The notes: generated from the sequence alone by a model not told the origin. 32,000 nt of DNA from Phycisphaera mikurensis NBRC 102666 (GCF_000284115.1 NC_017080.1:3330001-3362000), one strand, 5' to 3'. Counted from the stretch's first letter, positions 6,200 through 26,263 are shown. Made by a program: numbers and translations.

Positions 6200-6715
6200 A
6201 TGACCGCCGTCGACTGGGTCCGCCGGATGCACGCCCACAAGCGTTGGGCGAACCGCCGGCTGCTCGAGGCCGTGGAAGACCTGCCGGAGAAGGATCGGCA
6301 CCGCTCCTTCGGGATCGGCCACGGCTCGGCGTGGGCGACGGTCGTGCATCTCTGGGCGGTGGACGCGGCCTGGCTCGAGACGATCGGCGGCCGCGAGGAC
6401 GCTCCGGTGGTGAAGGCGGGCGCGGTCGGCTCGGTGGAGGCGCTGGAGGCGCTGTGGGACGTGGCCGACGAGCGGTGGGTCACGCTGCTCGCCGGGCTCG
6501 AACCCGAGGATCTGGACCGACCGGTTTGGCGGACCAGCGCCGCGACCGGCGGCCGCCGCCGCGGCATGCCGCTGCACGACGTGCTGATCCACGTGTGCAC
6601 GCACGCGCAGTACACCGGCTCGCAGTGCGTGAACATCCTGCGGCGGCTGCGGGTGGCGGAGCTGCCGCGGATCTCGATGACGACGCTGAGCCGGGCCGGC
6701 TTCGAGGGACGCTGA
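6200..6715 (+). CDS. DinB-family (four-helix bundle, metal-dependent) protein
   Basis: ATG at 6200 lies inside the spurious 922-aa ORF 3947..6715. Sequence MTAVDWVRRMHAHKRWANRRLLEAVEDLPEKD...VVHLWAVDAAWLE...LIHVCTHAQYTGSQ carries the DinB-like conserved His pattern. High third-position GC begins at 6200. Confidence 0.75.
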   Translation: MTAVDWVRRMHAHKRWANRRLLEAVEDLPEKDRHRSFGIGHGSAWATVVHLWAVDAAWLETIGGREDAPVVKAGAVGSVEALEALWDVADERWVTLLAGLEPEDLDRPVWRTSAATGGRRRGMPLHDVLIHVCTHAQYTGSQCVNILRRLRVAELPRISMTTLSRAGFEGR

Positions 6716-6736
6716 TGGGCGCGTCCGGCCGCCGGG

Positions 6737-8233: not shown

Positions 8234-8303
8234 GGGGCGAGGGTAAGAGCGAGCGGAGAAGCGACGCCCCGGCGCCGCCGCGGGCACCCTTTACTGCAAC
8301 CCC

Positions 8304-9026
8304 TTGCCCCCCCTCCTCCACATCTCGGGCGTCACGAAGCGGTACCGGCAGGGGCGCGGCCGGTACGTGGACGCCCTGCGGGGCGTCGACCTGGAGGTGC
8401 CCCGCGGCGAGTTCCTCGCGATCATGGGCCCTTCGGGCTCGGGCAAGTCGACGCTGTTCAACCTCATCGGCGCACTGGACAAGCCCACCGCGGGCGAGGT
8501 GACGCTCGGCGGGTTGGCGCTCCCGCGGCTGCGGCCGCGGCAGCTTGCGTACGTGCGCTGCCGGCACATCGGCTACGTCTTCCAGGCGTACAACCTGGTG
8601 GCCTCGCTGTCGGCGCTCAAGAACGTGGCGCTGCCGGCGGTGTTCGGCGGAGCCGGCGTCGACGAGGCCGACGCGCTGGCGCGGGCCCAGCTCGACGCCG
8701 TCGGGCTGGGGCACCGGCTCGACCACCGCCCCGACCAGCTCTCCGGCGGGCAGCAGCAGCGGGTGGCGATCGCGCGGGCCCTCGTCAACGCCCCCGCCCT
8801 GCTGCTGGCGGACGAGCCGACGGCGAACCTCGACCACCGGACCGGGTCGGAGGTGATCGACCTCTTCCGCGAGCTCGGCGCGGCGCGGGGCATGACGGTC
8901 GTCACGACGACGCACGACCACCAGATGCTGCAGCGCAGCGACCGGGTCGTGTGGATCCGCGATGGGCAGAAGGTGCGCGAGGCGTCGTCGGCGGAGCTGG
9001 AGATCACGACCGGCGAGGTGGGCTGA
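8304..9026 (+). CDS. ABC transporter ATP-binding protein, LolD/MacB/FtsE-like
   Basis: TTG start at 8304. Walker A GPSGSGKST, signature LSGGQQQRVAIARAL, Walker B LLLADEPTANLD, H-loop TTTHD. No cognate permease gene is adjacent. Confidence 0.9.
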   Translation: MPPLLHISGVTKRYRQGRGRYVDALRGVDLEVPRGEFLAIMGPSGSGKSTLFNLIGALDKPTAGEVTLGGLALPRLRPRQLAYVRCRHIGYVFQAYNLVASLSALKNVALPAVFGGAGVDEADALARAQLDAVGLGHRLDHRPDQLSGGQQQRVAIARALVNAPALLLADEPTANLDHRTGSEVIDLFRELGAARGMTVVTTTHDHQMLQRSDRVVWIRDGQKVREASSAELEITTGEVG

Positions 9027-9034
9027 CCTCGGCG

Positions 9035-9082
9035 TCCGCGGACCGCCGGGCGGCGGGCCCGACGGGGGCGACGGTCCGCGGA
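9035..9082. repeat. REP-like palindromic hairpin, copy 1 (terminator-like, between convergent genes)
   Basis: tccgcggaccg (9035-9045) is the exact reverse complement of cggtccgcgga (9072-9082). The spacer is 26 nt. It begins 9 nt after the ABC ATPase stop and ends 11 nt before the response-regulator stop. Confidence 0.6.
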
Positions 9083-9092
9083 TTCCGCGGGT

Positions 9093-9506
9093 TCAGGCCG
9101 CGACCCCGGAAGCGGCCGGCGAGCCGAGCACCTCCTGAACGAGGGCGAGCATCTCGCGGCCGCTGAACGGCTTCCGCTTCACGGCGACGAGGCTCGGGCT
9201 GCCGAGGGCCTCCGGGGGCAGCGTGTGGCCGCGGCCGGTGAGCAGCACGACCGGGATCCCGTGCAGCGTCGGGTCGGCCTGCAGTTTGGCGACCAGGCCG
9301 GCGCCGTCGAGCACCGGCATGTTGAAGTCCGAGACGATCAGCGAGGGGTGCCGCTGGGTCGCGACGGCCAGGGCTTCGGCGCCGTTGCACGCGGTCGCGA
9401 CGGCGATGCCGGCGCCCTCCAGCTTGAGCGCCAGCAGCCGCAGGATGTGCGACTCGTCGTCGACCAGGAGCACGAGCGGCGGGGTTGCAGCGGGATCGGC
9501 CGGCAT
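9093..9506 (-). CDS. Stand-alone CheY-like receiver-domain response regulator (no output domain)
   Basis: MPADPAATPPLVLLVDDESHILRLL... has the acidic pair DD, the phospho-acceptor Asp in LIVSDFNMP, Thr in VVLLTG and Lys in RKPF. ATG at 9506 is preferred. The ORF-track TTG at 9620 adds 38 codons containing CTA, TTA and CCA with lower third-position GC. Confidence 0.8.
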   Translation of the reverse strand: MPADPAATPPLVLLVDDESHILRLLALKLEGAGIAVATACNGAEALAVATQRHPSLIVSDFNMPVLDGAGLVAKLQADPTLHGIPVVLLTGRGHTLPPEALGSPSLVAVKRKPFSGREMLALVQEVLGSPAASGVAA

Positions 9507-9616
9507 GCGGTCGGCATCGGCCCGTCGGCTTAAAGCCTTGAGCACGCGGTGCGGACGCCCCGGCGTCGCGCTTGGTAATAGCGTGGGCCGCCGCGGCCGG
9601 CCGGCCCGAGTGCCGC

Positions 9617-10561
9617 TCAAGCACCGGCGGGCCGGTCGTCGTCGGCGAGCCAGCGGAGGCTGCCGGGCAGGACCTCGGCGGCGACCGGATCGAGCACGCG
9701 GCGGAGCGAGACCGAGTCGACCTGCAGCCCCGCGGTGCCGTCACGCGTCTCCACGAAGAAGTAGCGGGAGCCGAGGGGCGGCAGCGGCGGGAGCGTGAGG
9801 TCGTCGACGATCGTCACGAACGCTCCCGCGACCGGCCCGACGACCGCCTGCTGGACCACCAGATGGAGGGCGCGGGCCTCGAGACCGACGCGGAGGTGAT
9901 CCCCACCGGAGGTCACGCGCGCCGTGGCGGCCAGCCGGAAGGTGGCATCGGTGAGCAGATCCGCGGGCATCGGCACCTCGAGGCCGTCGCTGGGCTCGTC
10001 GCGGTCGTCGAGCTCGGCGACCCGGCGGCCCCCCAGGCGGACGCGACGCAGCTCGGCGTCCTCGTCGCCGCGGCCCAAGGTGGGCGCCACGCCGTGCTCG
10101 AAGGACGGATTCGGCAGGAGCTCGGGCCCGAGCCGGGGCGGCTCGCGGAGCGTCGCGGCGAGGACGCGCACCGAGTCACCGACTTGCGCCCGAACCCGCA
10201 CGCGGTGCACGCCGGGGGAGCCGGGTTCCGGCTCGACCTTCGTGTGCAGCGAGCCCTCGCCAAGCGGCTCGGGACCCGCCCAGCCCGCGGGCGGTGCCGC
10301 CGCGAAGGCGGCGTCGCGGCCGAGACGGTTCGCCGCCGCCGCGACGCCGGCGACCGCGAGCGACTCCGCGACGGCGGCATCGGTGCCCAGGGCCGCGGTG
10401 GCGCGGACCAGCCGCGCCGCCAGCAGCCCGGAGATGCCCAGGATGGCGACCATCGCGGAGGTCCCGAGCACGAGCAGGTAGACCGAGCCGCCGCGGCGGG
10501 CGCGGCACGTGCGGCACGCGCGACGCCGCGGGGGAACGCTACGGGGCGGGCGGAGGCTCAA
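9617..10561 (-). CDS. GspK-like minor pseudopilin with C-terminal carbohydrate-binding-like beta-sandwich
   Basis: The proposed TTG start at 10561 overlaps the upstream stop (TTGA). The N-terminus ...RRGGSVYLLVLGTSAMVAILGISGLLAARL is a GspK-type hydrophobic segment lacking Glu+5. The C-terminal part LLPNPSFEHG...FRLAATARV...YFFVETRDGTAGLQVDSVSLRRV resembles CBM4/9-type jelly-roll modules. The ORF-track start at 11128 is a false extension. Confidence 0.6.
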   Translation of the reverse strand: MSLRPPRSVPPRRRACRTCRARRGGSVYLLVLGTSAMVAILGISGLLAARLVRATAALGTDAAVAESLAVAGVAAAANRLGRDAAFAAAPPAGWAGPEPLGEGSLHTKVEPEPGSPGVHRVRVRAQVGDSVRVLAATLREPPRLGPELLPNPSFEHGVAPTLGRGDEDAELRRVRLGGRRVAELDDRDEPSDGLEVPMPADLLTDATFRLAATARVTSGGDHLRVGLEARALHLVVQQAVVGPVAGAFVTIVDDLTLPPLPPLGSRYFFVETRDGTAGLQVDSVSLRRVLDPVAAEVLPGSLRWLADDDRPAGA

Positions 10562-11121
10562 CCCCCACCCCCCGCCGCGCGGCGGGTTGCCAGGCCCACG
10601 GCCTCGGCGAGCAGACGCTCGCCGCGGGTCACGCGCACGACCACCCGCTTGAGGCCCTCGTCGGCGCCGGCCTCCGTGCCCGGCGACGCCGCGGAGACGT
10701 GCCGCACCCAGGCCGCGCGGCGGAGGCCCGCGGTCCGCGGGATCTCGACGCCCTGGCGGTCGAGCAGCGGCGATCGGGACCAGCCGTCGACGTCGTCGAC
10801 GTCGTCGAAGCCGGTGCGGCCGGGCGCGGCCATCTCCTGCGCCGTCGGGCCCCACCCCGGCGCGAAGCCCGGGCGGTACGGCCCGTCCTCGGGGTCGTCG
10901 TACGCGAGCGCGAGCGCCTCGGCCACCAGGTCCTGCGCCAGCCGCGCCGCCAAGGCCCGCTCCGCCGAGCGGTGCCGCGTGCCCGCCGCCGCGGCCGAGG
11001 CGTGCAGGGCCGCCACCATGAGGCCCGCCACCAGCAGCATCGACAGCGTCGCCTCGACCAGCGAGACGCCGGCGCGGCCGCGGTCCGGCCGCGCCCGGAG
11101 GTTCGGCGGACCGGGGCTCAC
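10558..11121 (-). CDS. Minor pseudopilin (GspI/J-like), prepilin-type N-terminus
   Basis: The GTG start at 11121 overlaps the upstream stop (GTGA). The prepilin motif is RGRAG|VSLVEATLSMLLVAGLMVAAL, with Glu at +5. 187 aa. Confidence 0.7.
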   Translation of the reverse strand: MSPGPPNLRARPDRGRAGVSLVEATLSMLLVAGLMVAALHASAAAAGTRHRSAERALAARLAQDLVAEALALAYDDPEDGPYRPGFAPGWGPTAQEMAAPGRTGFDDVDDVDGWSRSPLLDRQGVEIPRTAGLRRAAWVRHVSAASPGTEAGADEGLKRVVVRVTRGERLLAEAVGLATRRAAGGGG

Positions 11122-12740
11122 GCGCCACCTCCGGCAGCGCCGCCGGTGGCGTCGAGCACGTCGAGCTCGACGCCCGTGGCGGAGGAAGCGAAGCGGAAAT
11201 CGTCGGCGTCGACGGCCGAACGCTCCACCGGGAGCGTCCCCACGGAAGCGCCGTTGACCGCCACGGACACCCGCTCGTGGTCGGGATCGAGCACCAGCGT
11301 CACGTCCGCCCAGCTCCCGCCGGGAAGGCCAACGCCGTGCCAGCCGCCGGCCGCGTCGCCGCTGCCGGGGCTGCTGAAGCGGATCCGCTGGCCCTCCGCG
11401 TCGCGGCGGACGTGGACCGCCACCCGGGCGGCTTCCGCACCGAGGCGGCCGAAGCGGACCTCCACGCCGCCGCCGCCGTCGCCGGCCGTGCGGTCGCGCA
11501 GACGCAGCCTCAGAAGGGTCGGGCCGGGCAGGCCGGCCGCCACGCCGCCGAGGCTGAAGCCCGCCCCGTCCCGCACGTCGAGCACCCCGCTGGCCACGGC
11601 GTTCGGCGGCAGGCCGCCGCCGAAGTCGGGCACGCCGTCGGCGTCGAGGTCCAGCAGGTGGGGCGCCGCGGCGAAGTCGGTGCGGCGTCGCCACCCGCTG
11701 GCGACGACACCGGGCGCCGGCGTCGCCACCGCGACCACATCCCGCGAGCCCGCGACGCCGAGCCGCAGCGTCGCCGGGCCCAGGAGAGAGCGATCGTGCG
11801 ACCAGGCCGGCCCGGGCGTCCAGGCACGGCCCCGCAGCTCGTGCCTGGCCCGCGCCGCCTGCACCCGCGTCCACGTGGAGCCGCCGTCGGTGGAGGTGAA
11901 GAGGCCGTCGGCGAAGTTCGCGTCGGCGTCGCCGGTCTCGAACACCGCGGCGTCCTCGGGCGAGACCTCCGCGGTCTGCAGCGTCGCGACCAGGCCCACG
12001 CCCGCCGGCACGCGCAGCGCCCCGCCGTCGGCGGCGAAGGCGAGCGTCTCCCACGTCATGTGGTGATCCATGTCGCTGCGCCCGAGCTGCACCCCGGCGA
12101 GCACGGGGCCCGCCGGCCGGTCCCCCGCCCAGCGGCGGATCCGCAGGTCGAGCACCCCGGTCGAGTGGATGTGCTCGAGGCGCAGCCTCAACGCGCACAG
12201 CTCCCACGCGACGGCGTCCGCGGGCAGCGTCGGGAGCAGCGGCACCGCGAAGCCCGCCACGGCCCGCACGGTCCGCTCGTCCTCTGTGTCCCCGAAGCCG
12301 CCCAGCGGCTCCTCCTCCCCCCGCTCGGGGACGCCCGGCTGCGGGAGGCTCAGCGTCCGGACGCTCGGGAGGAGCGTGAACGCGTCCAGCGGGCCGCTCG
12401 CCTCCTCGATCGGGCCGCCGTTCCAGCGGCGTTGCAGCGGCGCCCCCGGCTCATTCTCACGCCACCAGCGGACCGACTCCGGCAGACCGTCGCCGTCGCG
12501 ATCGGGCAGCGCCAGCGTGACGTCCGAGGCGCCCTGCGGGGTGACCACCAGCGCGACGGCGAGCTCGGAGGCGAGGCGGGCCGCCGCGTCGCCGGCCCGC
12601 CGCTCCGCCTCGGCGGGCCCGTCGGGCGCCGGCACGGTCCGCACCGCCACCAGCAAGGCCGAGCTCATCCCCAGGAGCAGCACCGAGCTGATGCCCAGCG
12701 CGAGCACCAGCTCCACGAGCGTCGCGCCGGCGCGCCTCAC
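11118..12740 (-). CDS. Giant (540 aa) minor pseudopilin with Asp-box, DxDxDG-like and LamG-like C-terminal segments
   Basis: The GTG start at 12740 overlaps the upstream stop (GTGA) and gives a 5-aa leader: VRRAG|ATLVELVLALGISSVLLLGM, with Glu+5. DRDGDG and DLDADGVPD are acidic Ca-binding-like motifs. STDGGSTW (nt 11871-11894) matches the BNR/Asp-box SxDxGxTW. The C-terminus WADVTLVLDPDHERVSVAVNGASVG is concanavalin/LamG-like. Confidence 0.7.
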   Translation of the reverse strand: MRRAGATLVELVLALGISSVLLLGMSSALLVAVRTVPAPDGPAEAERRAGDAAARLASELAVALVVTPQGASDVTLALPDRDGDGLPESVRWWRENEPGAPLQRRWNGGPIEEASGPLDAFTLLPSVRTLSLPQPGVPERGEEEPLGGFGDTEDERTVRAVAGFAVPLLPTLPADAVAWELCALRLRLEHIHSTGVLDLRIRRWAGDRPAGPVLAGVQLGRSDMDHHMTWETLAFAADGGALRVPAGVGLVATLQTAEVSPEDAAVFETGDADANFADGLFTSTDGGSTWTRVQAARARHELRGRAWTPGPAWSHDRSLLGPATLRLGVAGSRDVVAVATPAPGVVASGWRRRTDFAAAPHLLDLDADGVPDFGGGLPPNAVASGVLDVRDGAGFSLGGVAAGLPGPTLLRLRLRDRTAGDGGGGVEVRFGRLGAEAARVAVHVRRDAEGQRIRFSSPGSGDAAGGWHGVGLPGGSWADVTLVLDPDHERVSVAVNGASVGTLPVERSAVDADDFRFASSATGVELDVLDATGGAAGGGA

Positions 12741-13234
12741 CGCAGGATCTCCGTGGAGCCCGACCCCGCGTCGACGGTCACGCGGAGTTGCCGCGAACCG
12801 ACGCCCAGGGTGACCCAGCCGCCGCCGTCGGGCGTGCCCCACGCGTCGAAGGTCGGGCCGGGGCGGTTCCCGAACGCGACGGCGTCGATCTTCACGGCCA
12901 GCGGGTCGTCGTGGAGGCGGAGCGGGGCCGCCGGCGACCCGTTCTGCGGGTTCGCCCCGGCCGGCAGCCCGCTGGGGGTGGCCGTGCCCGCCGCCGCGTC
13001 GAAGGCGACGGTCACGGGCGAGCGGGTGGCGGCGGCCGCCGCCCGGGCGTGGTCCAGCCGGGCCGCCACCTGCCCGGCCGCCGCCCGGAGGCGTGCGTCG
13101 GCCAGCGACCGGCTGTACCGCGGGGCGGCGATCATCGCCCCCGCCCCGACCAGCGTCAGCACCAGCACCAGCTCCACCAGCGTGAAGGCGCGGACGGATC
13201 GGGCGGGGCTCGGCGTGGACGCGGCGGTCATCAC
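12737..13234 (-). CDS. GspH/FimT-like minor pseudopilin
   Basis: N-terminus is MMTAASTPSPARSVRA|FTLVELVLVLTLVGAGAMIAAP (prepilin N-methylation motif, Glu+5, Ala at -1). Start is GTG 13234 or ATG 13231. 165 aa. Confidence 0.75.
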   Translation of the reverse strand: MMTAASTPSPARSVRAFTLVELVLVLTLVGAGAMIAAPRYSRSLADARLRAAAGQVAARLDHARAAAAATRSPVTVAFDAAAGTATPSGLPAGANPQNGSPAAPLRLHDDPLAVKIDAVAFGNRPGPTFDAWGTPDGGGWVTLGVGSRQLRVTVDAGSGSTEILR

Positions 13235-13253
13235 AGCGGCGGCGTCCGCGTGC

Positions 13254-13718
13254 TCAGAAGCGGCCGGCGGCGTTGCCCCAGATGCGGCCGGACGCCTCGT
13301 GGTAGAGCCAGCCGACGCCCGCGGTGCTCGAGACCGTCGTCGGCTTGGCGGCCACGCCTTCGACGCCCGCGTTGCCCTTCGCGTCGCCCACCTTCAACTC
13401 GGGCACCGCGACCAGGTACGGCCCGTAGTCGTAGCCCGGGGCCGGCTCGGCGACGGCGCCGCCGGCCTCGTTGGTGAAGGTGGTCAGCTGATCGGTGAAG
13501 CTCGTCGCGCTGGGGAACGCTCCGTGCTCGGCGGCGTAGAGCTCGATGGCGTTGCGGAGCACGGCGAGATCGGCCACGTAGGCGTTCTCGCTGGCGTTGG
13601 CGGCGCCCTGGCTGAAGCGGGGGATGGCGATCGCCGCGAGCAGGCCGATGATCACGACCACGATGATGAGCTCCACCAGGCTGAAGGCGGCGGAGCGGCG
13701 GGGTTGACGTGTGGGCAT
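13254..13718 (-). CDS. gspG: Major pseudopilin / type IV pilin-like protein (GspG-like)
   Basis: The ATG at 13718 is preceded by AAAGAGGA (Shine-Dalgarno-like) 7 nt upstream. N-terminus is MPTRQPRRSAA|FSLVELIIVVVIIGLLAAIAIPRF (Glu+5). 154 aa. The ORF-track start at 13979 is a false extension. Confidence 0.85.
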   Translation of the reverse strand: MPTRQPRRSAAFSLVELIIVVVIIGLLAAIAIPRFSQGAANASENAYVADLAVLRNAIELYAAEHGAFPSATSFTDQLTTFTNEAGGAVAEPAPGYDYGPYLVAVPELKVGDAKGNAGVEGVAAKPTTVSSTAGVGWLYHEASGRIWGNAAGRF

Positions 13719-13802
13719 GGCGATTCCTCTTTCGTGCGGATGGGGTGGCCTCGGAAGCGTTCCGAGCCGGTTCTTCGCGATCATCGGCACGACGCGGCCC
13801 GG

Positions 13803-13832
13803 AGTGAAGAAACGTACGGGATTTCCTGTAAA
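13803..13832 (-). promoter_or_regulatory. Candidate internal promoter for the pseudopilin sub-operon (AT-richer island in the 154-bp gap)
   Basis: The minus strand reads TTTACA (13832-13827), then 18 nt, then TTCACT (13808-13803). This is the lowest-GC patch inside the locus, about 85 nt upstream of the gspG-like ATG. The match to a sigma70 -10 is weak. Confidence 0.2.
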
Positions 13833-13872
13833 TTCAGGCGGCAGCGGGTCGGGGCGGACACGCCCGGAGGCG

Positions 13873-14448
13873 TCAGGGCAGGAACAGCGGGTCCGCGCCC
13901 GCGAGCGGCGTCGCCCGCGGCGGGTCGGCGGCGCGCAGCCCGGCGCGGAAGCGGAGGCCGCGGCCCGCCCACACCGCATACCGCCCGCGGATCGACTCGA
14001 GCTTCATCCCGTCGACCGTCGCCCCCACCTGCACCACCCGGCCGGCGACCACCGCCCGCGCTTCGGGCCCCTCGCCGAGGACGGCTTCGAGCGGGTGGCG
14101 CCGCAGGAACGAGCGGACGTCGAAGGGGTCGATGGCCGCCCAACGCGCCTCGACGTCCGGCGCCGCGGCGGCGGGCGCCACGCGGAAGGGGTCCGCGGCG
14201 GGTGCGGCGCCGGCGGCCGCCGGATCGGCGCCCCCGTCGCGCCGCAGGCGCCGGTCGATGCGTCCCGCCGGCCCCGGCGGAAACGCCGCGTCGGGCGTCG
14301 CCCCCGGAGCCGCGGCGGGCGCGGCGGCCGGCGCCGCGGCGGGCGGCGACGCGGTGGCGGTGGCGGGGCTGCCCCCGATGCGATCGAGGGCGACCACGCC
14401 CGCGGCGAGGGCGGCGGCGACGGCGAGGTTCCGGGTCCGCTTGTTCAA
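13873..14448 (-). CDS. PilP/GspC-like inner-membrane-anchored protein
   Basis: The proposed TTG start at 14448 overlaps the upstream stop (TTGA). It has an N-terminal anchor LNKRTRNLAVAAALAAGVVAL, an Ala/Pro-rich linker, and a C-terminal beta domain DPFDVRSFL...AVVAGRVVQVGATVDGMKLESIRGRYAVW. An alternative GTG start lies at 14484/14487. Confidence 0.5.
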   Translation of the reverse strand: MNKRTRNLAVAAALAAGVVALDRIGGSPATATASPPAAAPAAAPAAAPGATPDAAFPPGPAGRIDRRLRRDGGADPAAAGAAPAADPFRVAPAAAAPDVEARWAAIDPFDVRSFLRRHPLEAVLGEGPEARAVVAGRVVQVGATVDGMKLESIRGRYAVWAGRGLRFRAGLRAADPPRATPLAGADPLFLP

Positions 14449-15002
14449 GGCACGCCTCCGGGTGCCTCGGGCGGGACGATCGACCACGTCAGCAGGTGGC
14501 GGCCGAGCAGCCCGCCGCCCTCGGGCCGCAGGGAAAGCGACGTCGAGCGGAGGTCGCGCGGGCCGCTCTGGATGCGGCCCAGGAAGGCCCGGTGCGCCGC
14601 GTACGAGCCGCGGGCCTCCAGCTCGATCGCCACCTCCGCCCACCCGCCCGCGCGGACCGGCTCGCCGGGATCGAGGCGGAGCACCTCCAGCCCCCCGGAG
14701 GCCGCGAGGTCGAGGAGGCCGGCCAGGCGCGCGTTGCGTTCCTCGGAGCGGCCGGCGACCACGCCGGCCGCCGCCCGCTCGGCGAGGCGGGCCTCCTCCG
14801 CGCGGGCGGCGGCCAGCTCGACCGCCACTTCGTGACGCTCCGCCTTCGCGGCGGCCAGGCGTGACGCGGCGGCCTGCGTGGAAGCCGCGGCGGCGCGGGC
14901 GGGCGCGACCAGGCCCAGCCAGGCGGCCCCGGTCGAGCCCGCCACGATGGCTCCCGCGGCGGCGGCGGTGAGCAGCAGGCTCGGCGTGGGGCGGGGCTTC
15001 AT
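14445..15002 (-). CDS. PilO/GspM-like bitopic membrane protein
   Basis: The ATG at 15002 overlaps the upstream stop (ATGA). It has a TM segment (MKPRPTPSLLLTAAAAGAIVAGSTGAAWLGLV), an Ala/Glu/Arg coiled coil, and a C-terminal domain WAEVAIELEARGSYAAHRAFLGRI. Confidence 0.6.
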   Translation of the reverse strand: MKPRPTPSLLLTAAAAGAIVAGSTGAAWLGLVAPARAAAASTQAAASRLAAAKAERHEVAVELAAARAEEARLAERAAAGVVAGRSEERNARLAGLLDLAASGGLEVLRLDPGEPVRAGGWAEVAIELEARGSYAAHRAFLGRIQSGPRDLRSTSLSLRPEGGGLLGRHLLTWSIVPPEAPGGVP

Positions 15003-16516
15003 CCGGCGGGATCCCCATCGGGCCCGGCGGGCAGCGGCATGAGCTCCAGCAGGACCTCGAAGCGGACGCCTGGGGTCTCCGCGCCCACCCGGCGGGCGCG
15101 GGCCAGCTCCACCCGCTCGAAGAGCTCGCCGGCTTCCAGCGCCAGCGCGAAGGCCCAGGCGGCGGCCGGGTCGTCGGCCTCGCCGGCCACCCGGATCCGG
15201 GCTGCCCCGCCCGCGGCAGCCGGCGCGATCGAGAGCTCGGTGAAACGCACGCGGCCGCGGGCGTCGGCCGCGAGACGGTCGAGCAGCAGCCGCCAGTCGG
15301 GCCGGTCCGCCGCTCGCTCCGAAGCGACCGCCTCCGCGGCGAGGGCTTCCAGCCGGCCGCGGACGGCCTCGAGCTCGAGCCCCGCGGCGTGGGCCGCCAC
15401 CGCCTCCGCATCCGCCTCGGCCGCCAGCGTCGAGGCGTCCACGCGGGCACCGTCCGCCTCGTCGGGCCCCGACGAGGCGAGCAGCGCGGCAATCACCGCG
15501 ACCGCGGCGGCGTAACCCGCGGCGCTGCCGAGGAGCCCGCCGCGCGCCCGAGCCTCCCGGCGGCGACGGCGGATCGCCGGGGGGAGCAGGTCCACCGCGT
15601 CGTCCGCACCCCCGCCGAGCCCCGCGGCCACCGCCGAGACGCCGGCCGCGCCGCCAATCGCGAGAAGCCGCAGGCCGAGGCGGTCCGCGAGGGCGGAGGC
15701 CCAGCGTCCGCCCGCGTCGCGGGTGCACAGCGCCGGATCCGACTCCGCCCCCAGCAGGCGCTGGGCGTGCCGCAGCCCCGGCGACAGCTCCGCCGCGAGC
15801 GCCTCGCACTCGGCCGGCGAGGCCTCCCGGCCCTCCGCAGGCGGGATGGCGTGCAGGCCCCGCAGGTAGACGCACCGGCCGCCGCACGCCACCACCAGCT
15901 GGCCGCCGAAGCCGGCCTCGCCGGGCGATTCCCACCGGTCCAGCAGCACGAGCACCTCCCCGCCGCCGGCGGCCGATCCGAGGGCCGCGGCCCGGGCCAG
16001 GGCATCGGCACGGCTCCGCACGCCGACCACGCGCAGCCCGGCCCCGGCGAGGGCGGCGCAGCCGAGCTCCAGCGGCGTGCGGCGGCAGCCGCGAACCAGG
16101 AAGCCCCGGCCGTTGCCCATCGCGGTGGCGACGCCGAGGAAGTCGTCCTCCGCCGCGCCGACGGCGGCGGCGCCGCGGCGGACCGCTTCGGCGGCGGCGG
16201 CCGCTTCGGAAGCACCCGCCGCCCGCGTGCCGCCCTCGATGCACGTCGAGAAGCAGGCTTCCTGAGGGACCGAGAGCACGACCCGGCGGCCGCGGAAGCG
16301 GCGGCGGGCGAGCACGCGGGCGAGCGCCTCGGACTCCGCCGGACCGGGCCAAGCCGCGTCCGCGGCGTCCGGCGGTCGCTCGGGGCGGGGCACCTCCACG
16401 GCATCGATCGGCGTGCCGTCGGCGGCCTGCTGCGCCGCCCGGATCGTGCGGCCGTCCACCTCGAGGCGGATCGGGCCGCAGCGCCCGGGGAGCCCTCGGA
16501 GCAGCGGCACGCTCAC
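14999..16516 (-). CDS. PilM-PilN fusion protein (GspL-like assembly platform component)
   Basis: The GTG at 16516 overlaps the gspF stop (GTGA). The N-terminal ~330 aa are actin-like PilM-type (IRLEVDGRTIRAAQ..., VVLSVPQEACFSTCIE). A PilN-type segment follows (DLLPPAIRRRRREARARGGLLGSAAGYAAAVAVIAALLA, basic stretch plus TM), then a periplasmic domain. 505 aa. Confidence 0.6.
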   Translation of the reverse strand: MSVPLLRGLPGRCGPIRLEVDGRTIRAAQQAADGTPIDAVEVPRPERPPDAADAAWPGPAESEALARVLARRRFRGRRVVLSVPQEACFSTCIEGGTRAAGASEAAAAAEAVRRGAAAVGAAEDDFLGVATAMGNGRGFLVRGCRRTPLELGCAALAGAGLRVVGVRSRADALARAAALGSAAGGGEVLVLLDRWESPGEAGFGGQLVVACGGRCVYLRGLHAIPPAEGREASPAECEALAAELSPGLRHAQRLLGAESDPALCTRDAGGRWASALADRLGLRLLAIGGAAGVSAVAAGLGGGADDAVDLLPPAIRRRRREARARGGLLGSAAGYAAAVAVIAALLASSGPDEADGARVDASTLAAEADAEAVAAHAAGLELEAVRGRLEALAAEAVASERAADRPDWRLLLDRLAADARGRVRFTELSIAPAAAGGAARIRVAGEADDPAAAWAFALALEAGELFERVELARARRVGAETPGVRFEVLLELMPLPAGPDGDPAG

Positions 16517-17652
16517 GAGCCGCCCCCGCCCGCCATCGCCGTGAGGTCGAACAGCGGCAGGAACATGCTCATCGCCAGCGCCCCCACCACGAGGCCGAGC
16601 AGCAGGAGGATCACCGGTTCGAGGGTCTTGGTCAGCAGCCGCACCAACGCGTCGTTCTCCTGCTCGAGGAACTCCGCCACCGCCACCATCGCCGGTCCGA
16701 GGCGGCCGCTGGACTCGGCGCTGCGGAAGGCCTCGTACACCGAAGGCGCAATCAGGTCCGGGTCGTCGAAGGCGGCGGAGACGCCCTCGCCGCGGTCCAC
16801 GGACGTCTCCGCCGCGTCGAGCAAAGCGCGGTAGCGGGCGTTGCCGCAGGATCCACGGACCAGCGCCAGCACCTCCATCAGCGGGAGGTGGCAGTCGGTC
16901 AGCACGCCGAAGAGCCGGACGATCTGCGCCGTGGCCAAGCCTTTGATCACCGGCCCCAAGCCCGGCACGCGGAGCAGGGTGGCGTCGAGCGCGAGCCGGC
17001 CGGCGGGGCTGCGGACCAGCAAGAAGCCGGCGGTCGCCGCGGCGGCCAGGCCGCCGCCGATCCACAAGCCCTGGTCGCGGAGGGTCTGGCTGGTCCACAC
17101 CGTGATCTGCGTGGTCGGCGGCATCGGCACGTTGAGCGTCTCGAAGAGCCCCGCGAAACGCGGCACGACGAACAGCAGCATCGAGACGCCCACCGCCGTC
17201 ACCACCGCCAAGAGCGCGAGCGGGTAGGCCAGCGCGGCGATGACCGCCGAGCGCACCTGCAGGTCCTTCTGGATCAGCCCCGCGACGCGCTCGAGCATGT
17301 CGCCCAGCCGCCCCGTCGACTCGCCCGCGGCGACCAGCCCGCGCGACACCGCCGGGAACAGCTCCGGCCGCCTGCCCATCGCCCCCGACAGCGAGCTGCC
17401 GCCCTCGATCGATTCCGCGAGCTCGGCGACGGTCCGCTCCCACAGCGGGTCGGCGGTCTGGCGGCGGAGCGCGTCGAGCGACTGCAGCAGCGGCGTGCCC
17501 GCCGAGAGCAGCAGCTGCAGCTGCCGGACGAAGAGCAGCAGCTGCCGCCGGCGGCCGAAGCGCTGCGCGGGCGTGAGGCGCCCGGCGGCGCGGGGCGGGG
17601 CGCCGGCCGGAGCGACCGGCGGCTCGAGGACGATGCCGGGGACGCCGCTCAC
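16513..17652 (-). CDS. gspF: Type II secretion / type IV pilus platform protein GspF/PilC
   Basis: The GTG at 17652 overlaps the gspE stop (GTGA). Two T2SSF repeats are present (LLFVRQLQLLLSAGTPLLQSLDAL...GESTGRLGDMLERVA and ...AESSGRLGPAMVAVAEFLE). Three TM helices. 379 aa. Confidence 0.9.
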   Translation of the reverse strand: MSGVPGIVLEPPVAPAGAPPRAAGRLTPAQRFGRRRQLLLFVRQLQLLLSAGTPLLQSLDALRRQTADPLWERTVAELAESIEGGSSLSGAMGRRPELFPAVSRGLVAAGESTGRLGDMLERVAGLIQKDLQVRSAVIAALAYPLALLAVVTAVGVSMLLFVVPRFAGLFETLNVPMPPTTQITVWTSQTLRDQGLWIGGGLAAAATAGFLLVRSPAGRLALDATLLRVPGLGPVIKGLATAQIVRLFGVLTDCHLPLMEVLALVRGSCGNARYRALLDAAETSVDRGEGVSAAFDDPDLIAPSVYEAFRSAESSGRLGPAMVAVAEFLEQENDALVRLLTKTLEPVILLLLGLVVGALAMSMFLPLFDLTAMAGGGGS

Positions 17653-19493
17653 GCCGCCACCGCCGTTCGAGCCGCGTCCTCGCCCTCGTCCGCGGGCGGC
17701 GGACCCGGCGCGGCGTCCTCGCCGAACTCGTCGCGGTGGGTGACACGCAGCGCTTCCTCGAGGTTGCAGACGCCGGCGATCGCGAGGGCGACGCCCTCGT
17801 CCCGCAGCGTCCGGCCGCCCTGGGCCGCCCAGCGGCGGCCGATCTCCTGGGCGCTCGCGCCGGTGTGGATCCCCCGGCGAAGCGGCCCGTCGACGGCCAT
17901 CACCTCGTAGACGCCGCGCCGGCCGAGCATGCCGCTGTTGTGGCACTTCTCGCACCCGGTGCCCTGGCTGAAGGCGCCCTCGTGCGCGGGATCCAGCCCG
18001 GCGTCCTCCAGCGCCTCCGCCGGCGGCCGGTAGCGCGTGCGGCAGTGCGGGCAGACGGTCCGCACGAGCCGCTGGGCCACCACGCCGTTGAGCGCGGCCG
18101 AGAGCAGGTACGTCGGCACGCCCATGTCCAGCAGCCGGGTGACGGCACCCGGGGCGTCGTTGGTGTGCAGCGTCGCGAGGACGGCGTGCCCGGTGAGCGC
18201 GGCCTGCACGGCCGTCCGCGCCGTCGCCTCGTCGCGGATCTCGCCGATCATGATGACGTCGGGGTCCTGGCGGAGGATGCTGCGCAGCGCGCGGGGGAAG
18301 GACAGGCCGACCGCCTCGCCCACCTGGATCTGGTTGATGAAGTCCAGCTGGTACTCGACGGGGTCCTCCACCGTCATCACGTTCTTCTCGGGGCTCCGCA
18401 GAAGGTCCAGCGCCGAGTACAGCGTCGTGGTCTTGCCGCTGCCGGTGGGGCCGGTCACCAGCGTCAAGCCGTGGGGTCGCTTGAGCACGCCCATCAGCGT
18501 CTCGAGCTGCTCGTGGGTCAGCCCCAGCTCCTCCATGCGGACGCGGAGGTTCCGCTTGTCGAGCACGCGGATCACCAGCTTCTCGCCGAGCAGCGTCGGC
18601 ATCGACGACACGCGCAGGTCGATGTCGCGGCCCTCCGCCTTGAGCCGCACGCGGCCCTCCTGCGGCAGCCGCTTCTCGGCGATGTCCATCTTGCCGATGA
18701 CCTTCAGCCGCGAGACGATCGCGGCGTGCATGCCCGCCGGCGGGCTCATCAGCTCGCGCAGCACGCCGTCGACGCGGTAGCGGATCCGCGTCGCACGGCC
18801 CGCGGGCTCGACGTGGACATCGCTGGCGCCGTCCTTGATCGCCGAGAGCAGCGCGACGTTCACGAGGTTGACGATGGGGCTGCCCTCGACCATCCGCTCC
18901 AGCGTGGAGCCGGCCTCGATCTCGACGGCCTCCTGGTCGACCACCTCGACGTCTTGCTGCACGTCGGTCTTGGCGAGCTGAGAGAGGAAGGCGCCCACGT
19001 CGACGCTGGTCGAGGCGTAGCGCCCGATGAACTCCTCGATCTGGCCCTCCAGCGCCAGCACCGGCCGGATGCGGCAGCCCGACATCGCGGCCAGCCGGTC
19101 GATCGTGTCCAGCGACTGCGGCTCGGCCATCGCCACCGTCAGCTCGCCGTGCACGCGGAACAGCGGCAGCGACCGCAGCTTCCGGCACGCCTCCGGGCCG
19201 AAGAGAACCAGCAGCGCCGGGTCGATCAGGCCGTGCCGCAGCGTGATGGCCGGGACCGCCAGCGCCTCGCCGAGCACGGCGAGCAGCTGGCGGCCGGTGA
19301 GGACCTCCATGTCGATGAGCACCTCGCCGAGCCGCCGCCCGCCGCTGCGCTGGCGTTGGAGCGCCGTCCGCAGCTGCTCGGGCGTGATGGCGCCGGAGTC
19401 GACGAGCAGGTCGCCGATCCGGGGGCCGCTGCCGGCGGCCGGGGCGGCGTCCGCGGCGGCCTCCGACGGGTGCCCGGGGGAGACCGCTCTCAC
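17649..19493 (-). CDS. gspE: Type II secretion / type IV pilus assembly ATPase GspE/PilB
   Basis: The GTG at 19493 overlaps the STAS stop (GTGA). It has an N-terminal T2SSE_N-type domain (IGDLLVDSGAITPEQLRTAL...). Motifs: Walker A GPTGSGKTTT, Asp box MTVEDPVEY, Walker B PDVIMIGEIRD, His box LATLHTNDA. The tetracysteine motif is CPHC...CEKC. Confidence 0.93.
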   Translation of the reverse strand: MRAVSPGHPSEAAADAAPAAGSGPRIGDLLVDSGAITPEQLRTALQRQRSGGRRLGEVLIDMEVLTGRQLLAVLGEALAVPAITLRHGLIDPALLVLFGPEACRKLRSLPLFRVHGELTVAMAEPQSLDTIDRLAAMSGCRIRPVLALEGQIEEFIGRYASTSVDVGAFLSQLAKTDVQQDVEVVDQEAVEIEAGSTLERMVEGSPIVNLVNVALLSAIKDGASDVHVEPAGRATRIRYRVDGVLRELMSPPAGMHAAIVSRLKVIGKMDIAEKRLPQEGRVRLKAEGRDIDLRVSSMPTLLGEKLVIRVLDKRNLRVRMEELGLTHEQLETLMGVLKRPHGLTLVTGPTGSGKTTTLYSALDLLRSPEKNVMTVEDPVEYQLDFINQIQVGEAVGLSFPRALRSILRQDPDVIMIGEIRDEATARTAVQAALTGHAVLATLHTNDAPGAVTRLLDMGVPTYLLSAALNGVVAQRLVRTVCPHCRTRYRPPAEALEDAGLDPAHEGAFSQGTGCEKCHNSGMLGRRGVYEVMAVDGPLRRGIHTGASAQEIGRRWAAQGGRTLRDEGVALAIAGVCNLEEALRVTHRDEFGEDAAPGPPPADEGEDAARTAVAA

Positions 19494-19858
19494 AGGAAGC
19501 TCCTCGCGGCGTCTTCCGCGTCGTCGTGGTGGTCGAAGGCCTCGTGCTGGCCCGTGATTTCCAGGATCGTGGCGATGGCGGAGGTCGCCCCGCAAAGGCG
19601 GAGGGTGAGCCCGCCGTCCTCGAGCCGGCCGGCCGCGTCGACGAGCGACTCCAGGCCGATGCTGTCCAGGGCCGCAACGCCCGAGAGATCGACGACCAGC
19701 CGCCCCAGCGTGCGGACCTCCTCCTCGGCCAGGAGCTCCGCGAAGGAGGCCGCGGCCTCCCCGGTGAGCGACCCGCGGGGGGCGAGCACGGTGACCCCGC
19801 CGATCCGCTGCACGCGGGTGCCGGCGGGGGCTTCGGGTTGCTCCGCGGGGCGGCTCAC
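19490..19858 (-). CDS. STAS-domain protein (SpoIIAA/RsbV-like anti-sigma-factor antagonist)
   Basis: GTG start at 19858, 1 nt after the kinase stop. 122 aa: VTVLAPRGSLTGEAAASFAELL...LVVDLSGVAALDSIGLESLV...LRLCGATSAIATILEITG. The conserved phosphorylatable-Ser context DSIG is present. Confidence 0.8.
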   Translation of the reverse strand: MSRPAEQPEAPAGTRVQRIGGVTVLAPRGSLTGEAAASFAELLAEEEVRTLGRLVVDLSGVAALDSIGLESLVDAAGRLEDGGLTLRLCGATSAIATILEITGQHEAFDHHDDAEDAARSFL

Positions 19859-19859
19859 C

Positions 19860-21488
19860 TCAGGCGGCCCTCCGCGGCGCCGATTCGTCCGCGGCGTCCG
19901 CGCCGATCGAGCCCGCGACGCGGTGCTCCGGCGAGCCGCCCCGCAGCGGGATCCTCAGGACGAACGCGGCGCCGACGCCGCCGTCCCCGTCGGACACGGT
20001 CAGCGTGCCCTCGTGCAGCGCCGCCACCTCGGCGGCCAGCGGCAGCCCCAGCCCGGTTCCCTCCGGCTGCGCCTCGCCGGCCGCCGCGTCGTGCGTGCCG
20101 CGGAAGAACGGCTCGAAGACCTTCTCACGCTCCTCGGCCCGCACGCCCGGCCCGTCGTCGACCACCCGGACCTCCAGCACCTCGTGCGCCACCGCCGCGT
20201 GAACAACGGTCCGCCCGCCGCGGCGGCCGTACTTCACGGCGTTGCCCACCAGGTTGTGCAGCAGCATCGAGAGCTTCTCGCGGTCGCCCTGCAGCACCGG
20301 CAGGTTCGGCTCGGCGTCGAGCGTGAGCGTCTGCTCCCGCGAGGCCGCGGCGGCCCGGTGCTCCTCGACCACCTTGGGCAGCAGCGTTGCCCAGGCCACG
20401 TCGTCCGAGGCGGCTTTGAGGCTGCCCGCTTTGATCTGCGAGACCGAGAGCACCTCGTCGATGAGGCGGGCGAGGCGGAGCACCTCGCCGTTGACGTGGT
20501 TGAGGCACTCGGCCCGCTCGGCCGCGGCCTCGGCCCCGGGGGTGGTCCCCAGGTCGATCGCCCGCTCGGCGTGCAGCTGCATGTTCTGCAGCGGTGCCCG
20601 CAGCTCGTGGCTGGCCTGCGCCACGAAGAGGTCGCGGGCCCGGTCGGCCGCCCGCTGCTGCGTGACGTCCTCGAGCAGCAGCAACGCCCCGCCGCCGGCG
20701 GCGGCCTGGCCGGCCCGCTTGCCGCCGCCCGCGGCTGCGCGCAGCGGCCGCAGCGTCACACGCAGCACCGACTCGCCCGCCGGCCCGGCGGGCACCTCTG
20801 CGCTGCCGCCCCGCCGCTCGAGCCCGGCCGCCACGGCCGACGCCCGGCCGGCGATGCCCTCCTCCGCGAAGAGCTCCTGAACCGACGCCTCCAGCAGGTC
20901 GGCCCGCGGCCGACGCAGCAGGCGCGCCGCCGCGCCGTTGGCCCGCGTGACCCGCCCGTCGCCGCCGAGCACCACCAGGCCGTGCGGCACGGCGTCGAAC
21001 GCGGCCGGGTCCTCGCCGGGCGCGGCGGACGGGGCGGCGGCCACGCCGGCCGCGCCGGCCGCGCCACCGACGCCGCCGCCGGCGGCGATGCGGGCGAGCA
21101 GGCGGTTCCAGTCGGCCGCGGGCTTGGCCGAGGTCCGGGTGATCTCCAGCAGAGCCGGGGCGACGCGGCCGTCGGCGAGGTCGGCGACGGCCCGCACGAC
21201 CAGCGTCTGCGCCCCGCTGCGCCACGCCAGCACCCCCACCGCCGCCATCAGCCCCAGCCCCCCCGCCGCGACCCCGGCCGAGGCCGCCGCCGTCGCGCCC
21301 GCCTCCGCCACCCCGCCGGGCACGAGGTAGCCCGCCGCCAGAGCCGCCCCCGAGAGCCCCGCCAGCGCCAGCGACAGCCCCCGCCCGTGGCGGCCCGCCC
21401 AGGCCGCGAAGCCCGGCATCGCGGCCGCGGCCGCCGACGCCGACGCGGAAGCGGGCGTTCTCGGCTCGGCGGTCCTCTCTTGCGGCAT
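19860..21488 (-). CDS. Membrane sensor histidine kinase (2 TM, PAS, HisKA, HATPase_c)
   Basis: ATG at 21488. TM segments are LSLALAGLSGAALAAGYLV and GLGLMAAVGVLAW. A PAS-like region is FDAVPHGLVVLGGDGRVTRANGAAARLL. Kinase boxes: H-box FVAQASHELRAPL, N-box LHNLVGNAVKYG, G1 DDGPGV, G2 GTGLGL. Confidence 0.88.
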   Translation of the reverse strand: MPQERTAEPRTPASASASAAAAAMPGFAAWAGRHGRGLSLALAGLSGAALAAGYLVPGGVAEAGATAAASAGVAAGGLGLMAAVGVLAWRSGAQTLVVRAVADLADGRVAPALLEITRTSAKPAADWNRLLARIAAGGGVGGAAGAAGVAAAPSAAPGEDPAAFDAVPHGLVVLGGDGRVTRANGAAARLLRRPRADLLEASVQELFAEEGIAGRASAVAAGLERRGGSAEVPAGPAGESVLRVTLRPLRAAAGGGKRAGQAAAGGGALLLLEDVTQQRAADRARDLFVAQASHELRAPLQNMQLHAERAIDLGTTPGAEAAAERAECLNHVNGEVLRLARLIDEVLSVSQIKAGSLKAASDDVAWATLLPKVVEEHRAAAASREQTLTLDAEPNLPVLQGDREKLSMLLHNLVGNAVKYGRRGGRTVVHAAVAHEVLEVRVVDDGPGVRAEEREKVFEPFFRGTHDAAAGEAQPEGTGLGLPLAAEVAALHEGTLTVSDGDGGVGAAFVLRIPLRGGSPEHRVAGSIGADAADESAPRRAA

Positions 21489-21705: not shown

Positions 21706-21723
21706 ATGGGCTCCCTGCGGCGA

Positions 21724-21741
21724 CCCCGCCCCGGGGCGGGG
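21724..21741 (-). terminator. Perfect 18-nt GC palindrome directly after the MFS gene stop (terminator-like)
   Basis: ccccgccccggggcgggg is self-complementary and lies 7 nt downstream (minus strand) of the TAA at 21748-21750. There is no U-tract. Confidence 0.35.
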
Positions 21742-21747
21742 CCTCGC

Positions 21748-26234: not shown

Positions 26235-26263
26235 GGGCGTGGCATCGCTTGGCAGCGATCCGA

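Follow-up and report, generated by a model that had tools for sequence, protein, structure and literature searches.

Within a 32,000-nt stretch of the genome of Phycisphaera mikurensis NBRC 102666 (NC_017080.1:3330001–3362000; hereafter the window, meaning the whole of this stretch), 13 consecutive minus-strand genes (positions 21488 to 9093, 12.4 kb) form a filament-assembly locus. In our reading, to which we give a probability of roughly 55%, it encodes a filament machine of the type IVa pilus kind that is conserved across the Phycisphaerae, with tip, export, and signalling steps that are proposed below. Judged from its sequence, the machine is PilMNOP-type (type IVa-like) and its pilins are type II-like. 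Within the type IV filament superfamily the locus is an unstudied variant, found clade-wide, all of whose parts come from known families, and the public annotation names its genes "hypothetical" or "anti-sigma factor antagonist".

The G+C content of the window is about 75%, which makes raw lists of open reading frames (ORFs) useless, so genes were called from a plot of GC by codon position (GC3 frame) combined with a scan of start codons. Both agree with an earlier sequence-only reading of this DNA, which had described 13 co-oriented genes in two blocks separated by a 154-bp gap. The genes are tightly packed, with start/stop overlaps of 4 nt between most of them. Block 1 runs from the kinase through the STAS protein, ATPase, PilC/GspF, PilM-PilN fusion, and PilO to the PilP/GspB-like protein; block 2 holds five prepilin-like proteins followed by a receiver. 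The gene inventory of the earlier reading was borne out by Pfam and NCBIfam profile scans of the locus proteins (Pfam was also used on the flanking genes). For the PilM, PilP-like, and K-like pilin calls, which Pfam did not support directly, confirmation came from orthologues. The features, in the order of transcription, are as follows.

19860–21488, minus strand: membrane sensor histidine kinase, 542 amino acids (aa); Pfam PAS_4 1e-8, HisKA 1e-9, HATPase_c 8e-21
19490–19858, minus strand: single-domain STAS protein, 122 aa; Pfam STAS 4e-15
17649–19493, minus strand: PilB/GspE/MshE-type assembly ATPase, 614 aa; Pfam T2SSE 2e-133, MshEN 9e-17
16513–17652, minus strand: PilC/GspF polytopic platform protein, 379 aa; Pfam T2SSF 3e-44, two repeats
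14999–16516, minus strand: PilM-PilN fusion, 505 aa; weak Pfam PilN match at residues 412–488, PilM part through orthologues
14445–15002, minus strand: PilO/GspM-like bitopic platform protein, 185 aa; Pfam PilO 9e-4, NCBIfam GspM 9e-4
13873–14448, minus strand: PilP/GspB/GspC-HR-like protein, 191 aa; AlphaFold2 (AF2) fold match, orthologues, and gene context
13719–13872: intergenic gap of 154 bp that precedes the pilin block; a GAGGA ribosome-binding site lies upstream of ATG 13718; read from the sequence
13254–13718, minus strand: major (pseudo)pilin, 154 aa, cysteine-free, GspG-like; Pfam N_methyl 6e-7
12737–13234, minus strand: GspH/FimU-family minor pilin, 165 aa; Pfam GspH 6e-6, N_methyl 1.5e-3, NCBIfam XpsH 2e-8
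11118–12740, minus strand: large minor pilin, 540 aa; weak N_methyl match, orthologue alignment
10558–11121, minus strand: small minor pilin, 187 aa; no Pfam match, orthologues 27–43% identical
9617–10561, minus strand: K-like terminal minor pilin, 314 aa; orthologue alignment A6, BLASTP to the relative L003
9093–9506, minus strand: stand-alone receiver, 137 aa from ATG 9506; Pfam Response_reg 1e-16, ORF open to 9620

A genome scan with the ATPase found its nearest relatives in Phycisphaerae and Planctomycetota metagenome-assembled genomes (MAGs), at 59–67% identity, followed by a gap to other phyla (at most 49%). The relatives were compared by tblastn, at the level of ORFs, and through independent gene calls with precomputed Pfam matches. 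At least 22 Phycisphaerae loci share one gene order: kinase, STAS, ATPase, PilC, PilM, PilN, PilO, PilP-like protein, one to three major pilins, H-like pilin, a pilin of 350–400 aa, small pilin, and K-like pilin. The arrangement is thus a clade-wide feature of the class and not a one-off; in this synteny comparison the gene order was kept, and the receiver at the tail was not. Below, L003 is the relative with the most similar full-length ATPase, and L025 (Planctomycetota) and L023 (Thermodesulfobacteriota) are the only non-Phycisphaerae members of the window's ATPase clade.

Assembly machine and pilins

The ATPase carries the Walker A and tetracysteine motifs, and among NCBIfam models it scores 561 bits with PilB (TIGR02538; cut-off 676) and 553 bits with GspE (cut-off 630). 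In a neighbour-joining tree of 81 ATPase cores, with the loci labelled by gene content, the Phycisphaerae group is monophyletic (bootstrap 100/100) and joins L025 and L023 in a STAS-linked clade (79/100). This clade lies outside the large GspE clade, whose loci hold GspL and a GspD-type secretin, and its neighbours are PilB clades linked to PilT. The machine appears to resemble a type IVa pilus more than a type II secretion system because its ATPase falls in this PilB-like clade, because PilM and PilN are separate genes in most relatives, and because L023 and L025 keep a secretin after the PilP-like gene, L023 having PilT as well. Membership in type II secretion failed: GspE, GspF, and GspG scores were below their cut-offs, no GspL match was obtained, and the locus has neither GspD nor a PDZ-bearing GspC. 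The type II side of the sequence-only reading's label is not supported. A second Planctomycetota PilB clade, linked to PilT, was also seen (L060, L070, L071, L077, L080, and L030); in the first five of these a PilP-like ORF lies just upstream of the ATPase.

The platform protein PilC/GspF scored 247 bits with the NCBIfam GspF model (cut-off 424) and 205 bits with PilC, both below cut-off. The next gene joins an actin-like PilM part to the PilN N-terminal motif VDLLP (residues 308–312), a hydrophobic stretch at about 327–349 that we take for a transmembrane helix, and the periplasmic domain of PilN. Most relatives have separate PilM (PF11104, 1e-8) and PilN (PF05137, 1e-6) genes, with which the fusion is colinear; it is shared, again colinearly, with L003 (533 aa). 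Since the single reading frame is present in two independent assemblies, the fusion named in the earlier reading is real and not a sequencing artefact. A PilM query finds the Phycisphaerae loci, while a GspL query finds proteobacterial loci and none of the Phycisphaerae. The L005 orthologue of the PilO-like protein matches PilO at 2e-10.

The PilP-like protein consists of an N-terminal hydrophobic helix, read as a membrane anchor, an Ala/Pro-rich low-complexity linker, and a C-terminal beta domain (residues about 111–172), an architecture kept in its orthologues. Its AF2 model (16 sequences) has a predicted local-distance difference test score (pLDDT) above 90 at residues 111–170 only. The best fold match in the PDB was Dickeya GspB (4wfw; probability 1.00, root-mean-square deviation 1.4 Å over 56 columns, E 0.05), and LspC, a GspC homologue, was also among the top matches. 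The family is large, with 1406 clusters at 50% identity. Among 68 sampled members, Pfam matches were to T2SSB in 34 (weak), CdsD_C in 23, and T2SSC in two; the protein has no PDZ domain, and T2SSB was matched more often than T2SSC. A profile of the orthologues gave nothing significant against PDB sequences, so the link to GspB is one of fold search and Pfam counts only. A family hidden Markov model (HMM) placed homologues immediately upstream of secretin genes in the outgroup loci L023, L025, L039, L072, and L076. Together with the fold match and the 34 T2SSB members, this upheld the PilP/GspC-like call of the earlier reading. The HR domain family (GspC, PilP, GspB) is known to contact the N0 domain of secretins. 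In L008 (15390–16118), the PilP-like orthologue has two C-terminal HR-type domains (HMM domains 7–184 and 186–247).

Class III prepilin signals (Gly or Ala at −1, Glu at +5) are present in the pilin block: four prepilins carry Glu5, conserved in orthologues, and one lacks it, which by these signals is the H/I/J/K (FimU/PilV/W/X) core-set pattern. The leader of the major pilin, MPTRQPRRSAA, is followed by FSLVEL (Ala −1, Phe +1, Glu +5), and the NCBIfam GspG model matches residues 12–81 at 2.7e-12 (47 bits, cut-off 89). Its orthologues are 42–54% identical and occur in one to three tandem copies, with a single copy in the window; in L004 (15942–17659) and L005 (15971–17665) three tandem paralogues have near-identical N-terminal helices (FSLIELVIVVVIIGIIGAIAVP). 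The leader of the GspH-family pilin ends in SVRA before FTLVEL, and that of the small minor pilin ends in GRAG before VSLVEA (Glu +5). When profiles of the J-like, I-like, and K-like pilins were searched against the PDB, the only matches were to the N-terminal helix or were weak ones of the LamG type, and for the small pilin only the N-terminal helix matched PDB pilins.

Both of the larger minor pilins are decorated, as had been claimed. In the 540-aa pilin (leader MRRAG, then ATLVEL, Glu +5), residues about 2–316 match orthologues of 350–400 aa, and the C-terminal portion of about 230 aa is an extension specific to this genome, with no PDB or Pfam assignment. A LamG-like motif considered in this extension was dropped when a LamG profile built from orthologues gave no match. 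A profile of the pilin (alignment A4, positions 186–308) weakly matched the DUF4815-domain/ORF65 chain of PDB 9euf (E 2.5e-4), a match that may be due to chance or to a beta-sandwich common to both. Within one subclade the orthologue of this pilin is only about 165–175 aa long (L009 17063–17587, L016 17036–17551, L018 17026–17520), so its globular part is dispensable or replaced there.

The K-like pilin begins with RRGG followed by SVYLLVL and has no Glu +5. Its pilin module extends to about residue 145, and the C-terminal beta-rich module aligns with the CBM4_9 module of L003. The two proteins are 34% identical over residues 13–193 (BLASTP, E 2e-15), and their colinear match reaches the start and the end of the CBM module ('PELLPNPSFEHG' and 'LQVDSVSL'). 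Other orthologues carry Laminin_G_3 (L007, L009, L018, L031, L085; down to 1e-22) in the place of the CBM_4_9 domain of L003 (3e-14). Public calls start this gene at 284 aa (NCBI) or 278 aa (Logan) and so drop the N-terminus RRGGSVYLLVL, which is found in all orthologues; the 314-aa model fits the orthologue alignment.

Signalling genes and the c-di-GMP motif

The kinase has a hydrophobic N-terminal region followed by PAS, HisKA (H-box SHELRAPL), and HATPase_c domains, and its orthologue stands immediately upstream of STAS in 22 of 22 related loci. The STAS protein, with 525 close relatives that all bear generic names, has the conserved serine of a DS.GLE motif and a C-terminal RSF(L/H) motif (RSFL in the window); residues D65, S66, G68, E70, S120, and F121 are invariant in nine aligned orthologues. 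The stop codon of its gene and the ATPase start overlap in the 4 nt GTGA. The same 4-nt overlap occurs in L004, L005, L009, L019, and L085/L086, the relatives whose gene calls were inspected, and throughout the ATPase clade, L023 and L025 included, STAS directly precedes the ATPase. In the literature we found no paper on a STAS partner of a pilus ATPase, on a STAS-PilB pair, or on STAS together with MshEN.

Residues 25–77 of the ATPase (nt 19263–19421) form a tandem MshE-type motif for cyclic di-GMP (c-di-GMP), and the corresponding model, NF053729, passed its cut-off at residues 25–76 (64.9 bits against 38). The published MshEN consists of a pair of motifs, each 24 residues long, RLGxx(L/V/I)(L/V/I)xxG(L/V/I)(L/V/I)xxxxLxxxLxxQ, 5 residues apart (PMC5013675). 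Motif 1 of the window (residues 25–48) fits it well and motif 2 (54–77) fits it at all but two conserved positions, and the ATPase is predicted to bind c-di-GMP.

The receiver probably starts at ATG 9506, as in the public gene call, and not at 9620. It is 36–47% identical to receivers that are coupled to HD-GYP proteins in relatives. Those relatives that have a receiver mostly carry a convergent receiver and HD-GYP pair downstream: in 11 loci there is an HD-GYP homologue no more than 10 kb away, and a receiver adjoins it in every case examined. A tail receiver that shares the orientation of the pilin block, as in the window, is confined to this genome. The earlier claim that regulators bracket the machine genes therefore stands at the head, where the kinase and STAS are present in all orthologous loci, and not at the tail. 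The bracketing reflects an ancestral regulatory set that was rearranged in this genome.

L023 has a GGDEF gene directly before STAS. This Thermodesulfobacteriota MAG carries, at 4133–13946, the genes for a kinase, a receiver, HD-GYP(GAF), GGDEF(GAF, MASE1), STAS, PilB, PilT, and PilC, with PilM, PilO-like, and PilP-like genes and a secretin further downstream, and is thus the fullest version of the STAS/c-di-GMP module, found outside Planctomycetota.

Export and the competing readings

No secretin or Peptidase_A24 gene was found by Pfam in the window, its flanking genes included, nor in a further 10 kb or so on each side, as the sequence-only reading had reported for the window itself. These extended flanks lie on the same contig (GCA_014207395.1, JACHEL010000009.1), and about 52 kb were read in all. 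A secretin HMM, built from secretin homologues of the outgroup loci that were identified with phmmer (three of them verified by Pfam), also found nothing in these 52 kb, and no PilT or second T2SSE-family gene is present there. A monoderm (actinobacterial) host was ruled out as a trivial cause of the missing secretin, the relatives being Planctomycetota.

The missing secretin, prominent in the earlier reading, does not set this locus apart. None of the 22 orthologous Phycisphaerae loci has a secretin within about 10 kb (in 15 of them the DNA reaches beyond 10 kb downstream from the ATPase start), nor does the fetched DNA of six other Planctomycetota loci of the PilB/PilT type hold one, so that 28 of the 29 Planctomycetota loci fetched have none nearby. 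In L025 (PilM, PilO, PilP-like gene, secretin) and L023, a Pfam-verified secretin directly follows the PilP-like gene; L023 has PilT between the ATPase and PilC. Because these two outgroups keep the secretin at this position, and because the PilP-like protein is retained, it seems likelier that the secretin was unlinked in this lineage and is encoded elsewhere than that it was lost. The claim that no peptidase lies in cis is true of the window, but two orthologous loci (L016 and L018) have a prepilin peptidase (A24_N_bact 1e-30, with Peptidase_A24) 1.5–3 kb upstream of the kinase, in support of a PilD-type enzyme being used. It is common for type IV pili to be encoded at several loci, with pilQ or pilD often unlinked (PMC4793230), and a secretin is known in the planctomycete Kuenenia (PMC3422733); multi-locus organisation would best explain both absences. 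We found nothing specific in the literature on pili or secretins of Phycisphaera.

The machine that we propose would work as follows. By homology, the PilB-like ATPase, PilC, and a PilM/PilN/PilO/PilP-type alignment complex make up the machine, and they would assemble the small GspG-like major pilin into a filament primed by the four minor pilins of the H/I/J/K kind. The Glu5-less K-like subunit would sit at the tip and display a glycan-binding module, CBM4_9-like here and LamG or CBM4_9 in relatives, making the filament an adhesin or a capture fibre for polysaccharide surfaces. Prepilins would be cleaved by a PilD-type peptidase encoded elsewhere in the genome, and the filament would cross the outer membrane through a secretin, likewise encoded elsewhere, that is contacted by the HR-type domain of the PilP/GspB-like protein. 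Assembly may be gated by signalling, with the PAS kinase phosphorylating the stand-alone receiver and, in relatives, the receiver-coupled HD-GYP phosphodiesterase setting the c-di-GMP level read by the MshE-type motif. The weakest step is that of STAS, whose translational coupling suggests a stoichiometric partner or regulator of the motor.

Several results weigh against this reading. Some components score slightly better against type II models (GspF above PilC, and the GspG-like major subunit), GspM matches as well as PilO, and the families nearest to the PilP-like protein are GspB and GspC. To the want of secretin, peptidase, and PilT around the locus is added that of a partner for STAS, as neither an RsbW/SpoIIAB-type serine kinase nor a PP2C phosphatase is present in the window or flanks, and the adjoining kinase is a HisKA/HATPase_c histidine kinase and not of RsbW type. 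The locus of this genome has no HD-GYP neighbour, and the second c-di-GMP motif (residues 54–77) deviates, with Glu63 for the conserved Gly and Ala77 for Gln. The C-terminal module of the window's own K-like pilin matches neither Pfam nor the LamG profile built from orthologues, and the single-sequence AF2 model of this protein is unusable (pLDDT 37). Lastly, the ATPase tree is by neighbour-joining only, with moderate support at its deeper nodes.

Some of these points would favour a divergent type II secretion system, which we regard as possible though unlikely. A short GspG-like pseudopilus with an H/I/J/K cap would then remain in the periplasm and drive folded exoproteins out by way of a secretin encoded elsewhere; the numerous glycoside hydrolases and sulfatases of the Phycisphaerae could be its cargo, and the lectin module of the K-like protein would aid the recognition of glycosylated cargo or polysaccharide-bound enzymes. 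The best NCBIfam matches to GspG, GspF, and GspM, the Pfam GspH match of the second pilin, the proximity of the PilP-like protein to GspB and GspC, the GspL architecture of the PilM-PilN fusion, the lack of PilT in cis, and the small, cysteine-free major subunit all agree with such a system. However, every one of its family scores is far below cut-off, most relatives have separate genes matching PilM_2 and PilN that a GspL query misses, the ATPase lies outside the clade of loci with GspL and GspD, and the nearest outgroup, L023, carries PilT. Moreover, classical type II systems are almost always encoded at a single locus (96.5%; PMC4793230) and include GspD, and lectin modules that can be interchanged are more in keeping with a tip exposed at the surface than with a cap in the periplasm.

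We consider it improbable that the filament works without any secretin, either confined to the periplasm or leaving through a planctomycete-specific outer-membrane structure such as a crateriform-type complex, with the HR domain of the PilP-like protein docking onto a partner of another kind. In its favour, 28 Planctomycetota loci have no secretin beside them, and planctomycetes do have unusual outer-membrane complexes from which fibres emerge (PMC5394234). Against it stand the secretins of L025 and Kuenenia, the placement of a secretin after the PilP-like gene in both outgroup members of the ATPase clade, the affinity of the HR family for secretin N0 domains, and the frequency of unlinked pilQ and pilD. 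More improbable still is a competence pilus for DNA uptake, of either the ComG or the type IVa kind: the major subunit resembles ComGC (9e-8) and the ATPase ComGA (9e-78), but such similarities, far below cut-offs, are generic to the superfamily, no gene for ComEA, ComEC, or DprA was found in or near the locus (52 kb), and the tip modules of relatives have carbohydrate-binding and not DNA-binding folds.

Flanking DNA, known systems, and biological meaning

As the earlier reading had stated, palindromes and unrelated genes bound the locus. A GC-rich hairpin with a 12-bp stem (9035–9082; −48.4 kcal/mol, z −3.0) lies between the convergent genes for the receiver and an ABC-ATPase, and a second GC-rich hairpin is found at 21722–21743; the first is terminator-like, and both lack a T-tract. 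The gaps contain no sigma-70-like promoter, a single terminator motif at chance level, and no riboswitch or other Rfam family, c-di-GMP riboswitches before the pilin gene included. The 154-bp gap in particular showed no sigma-70-like site, no excess folding (z 0.0), and no Rfam match, and it is possible that it holds an internal promoter for the pilin block. On one side of the locus are genes for a type I restriction subunit, a sulfatase, ABC-2 components, and an LCAT-like protein; on the other, for an MFS transporter, Aat, LysM, an M48 peptidase, LemA, BaxI, a beta-helix protein, and an integrase. The extended flanks add a type I restriction-modification operon with DarT/DarG, topoisomerase I, and XerC-like, TolB-like, GT2, and MMPL genes.

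Some of these neighbours deserve mention in their own right. A toxin-antitoxin pair, DarT (PF14487) and the Macro-domain protein DarG, is inserted in the type I restriction-modification operon between hsdR and hsdS/hsdM (L083 14842–16544, on the same contig, about 2.4–4.1 kb beyond window position 1), and positions 69–2504 of the window are the C-terminal part of the HsdR gene; together they form a small defence island adjoining topoisomerase I. Positions 24327–26966 (minus strand) hold the LemA gene, then a gene for an M48 peptidase of 635–671 aa whose C-terminal part has a weak TerB-like match. A 942-aa right-handed beta-helix protein, whose hydrophobic N-terminus is read as a signal peptide, is encoded at 28310–31138 (plus strand), beside an XerC/phage-type integrase (31302–32000, minus strand) whose ORF continues past the window end.

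With the type IVa pilus of Pseudomonas aeruginosa and Myxococcus xanthus the locus shares a PilB-like ATPase, PilC, PilM/PilN/PilO, a bitopic PilP-type protein with a C-terminal beta domain, Glu5 prepilins, and a four-member minor set with a GspH/FimU-family and a Glu5-less K/X-type member. It differs in lacking pilQ, pilD, and pilT, in its fused PilM-PilN, in its small, cysteine-free, GspG-like major subunit, in the kinase and STAS genes fixed upstream of the ATPase, and in having the adhesin module grafted onto a minor pilin instead of a separate PilY1. Type II secretion (Gsp/Pul/Xcp) offers parallels in the GspG-like major subunit, the GspH-family pilin, the Glu5-less K-type pilin, the GspL-like fusion, and the GspB/GspC-HR-like protein, whereas the ATPase outside the GspE clade, the separate PilM and PilN of most relatives, the lack in cis of GspD and of a PDZ-bearing GspC, and family scores under every cut-off set the locus apart. 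The bitopic inner-membrane GspB/OutB of Dickeya dadantii and the GspC HR domain (4wfw; LspC 7oio) have a similar long linker and small C-terminal beta domain, but sequence identity to GspB is about 14%, no GspA partner is present, and the gene occupies the PilP position after PilO.

Among regulatory systems, the single-domain STAS protein with its conserved phosphorylatable Ser in DS.GL recalls partner switching by SpoIIAA/RsbV, from which it differs in having no RsbW-type kinase or PP2C in the locus, in its coupling to a pilus ATPase, and in its pairing with a HisKA kinase. In Nostoc, the STAS-type system HmpU/V/W controls pilus-driven motility. The tandem 24-residue c-di-GMP motifs at the N-terminus of a PilB/GspE-family ATPase are shared with MshE of the Vibrio cholerae MSHA pilus (PMC5013675); here, however, the other msh genes are absent, the second motif is partly degenerate, and the locus type links STAS, kinase, receiver, and HD-GYP, as the MSHA system does not. 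For the tip, the closest parallel lies in the modular pilins of Streptococcus sanguinis, namely PilB with a vWA module and PilC with a ConA-like lectin module (PMC8179133, PMC9934059). There too a short pilin moiety, thought to be in the tip complex, bears a grafted carbohydrate-binding module of the ConA/LamG superfamily. In the Phycisphaerae, the module is placed instead on the Glu5-less K-type subunit of a diderm PilMNOP-type machine and is exchanged between close relatives (LamG or CBM4_9), and its glycan binding is putative.

The novelty claimed by the sequence-only reading survives in part. We found no paper on this architecture or on the STAS-PilB pair, but a lectin module grafted onto a tip-located minor pilin is established for S. 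sanguinis PilC (PMC9934059); the concept of a modular lectin pilin is therefore not new, and the swapping of modules on a K-type pilin in a diderm is a variation on it. Two elements are possibly new: the STAS-ATPase pair, which is conserved and translationally coupled, and, in a diderm, a tip pilin that swaps modules. The association of this pair with a kinase/receiver/HD-GYP/MshEN c-di-GMP circuit is an undescribed regulatory one, represented by hundreds of environmental sequences, and with its natural PilM-PilN fusion the locus offers a modern example of how GspL is thought to have arisen.

Planctomycetes bind, and apparently internalise, whole polysaccharides through surface fibres (PMC12673574; PMC5394234), and a 2025 review states that the mechanisms and players of this uptake are unknown (PMC12673574). 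These fibres were studied in Planctomycetia and not in Phycisphaerae (PMC5394234, PMC12673574). A filament operon with swappable carbohydrate-binding tip modules offers candidate genes for them. It is a tentative and rather doubtful extension of our reading that this STAS-coupled, c-di-GMP-gated machine builds glycan-capturing fibres of the Phycisphaerae, with STAS acting as a direct switch of the pilus ATPase. If so, the CBM or LamG modules at the tip would bind algal or other polysaccharides, which a PilT encoded elsewhere could reel to the cell, and STAS partner-switch proteins would gain a new output. The locus would then supply the missing players for fibre-mediated polysaccharide binding and uptake in planctomycetes.

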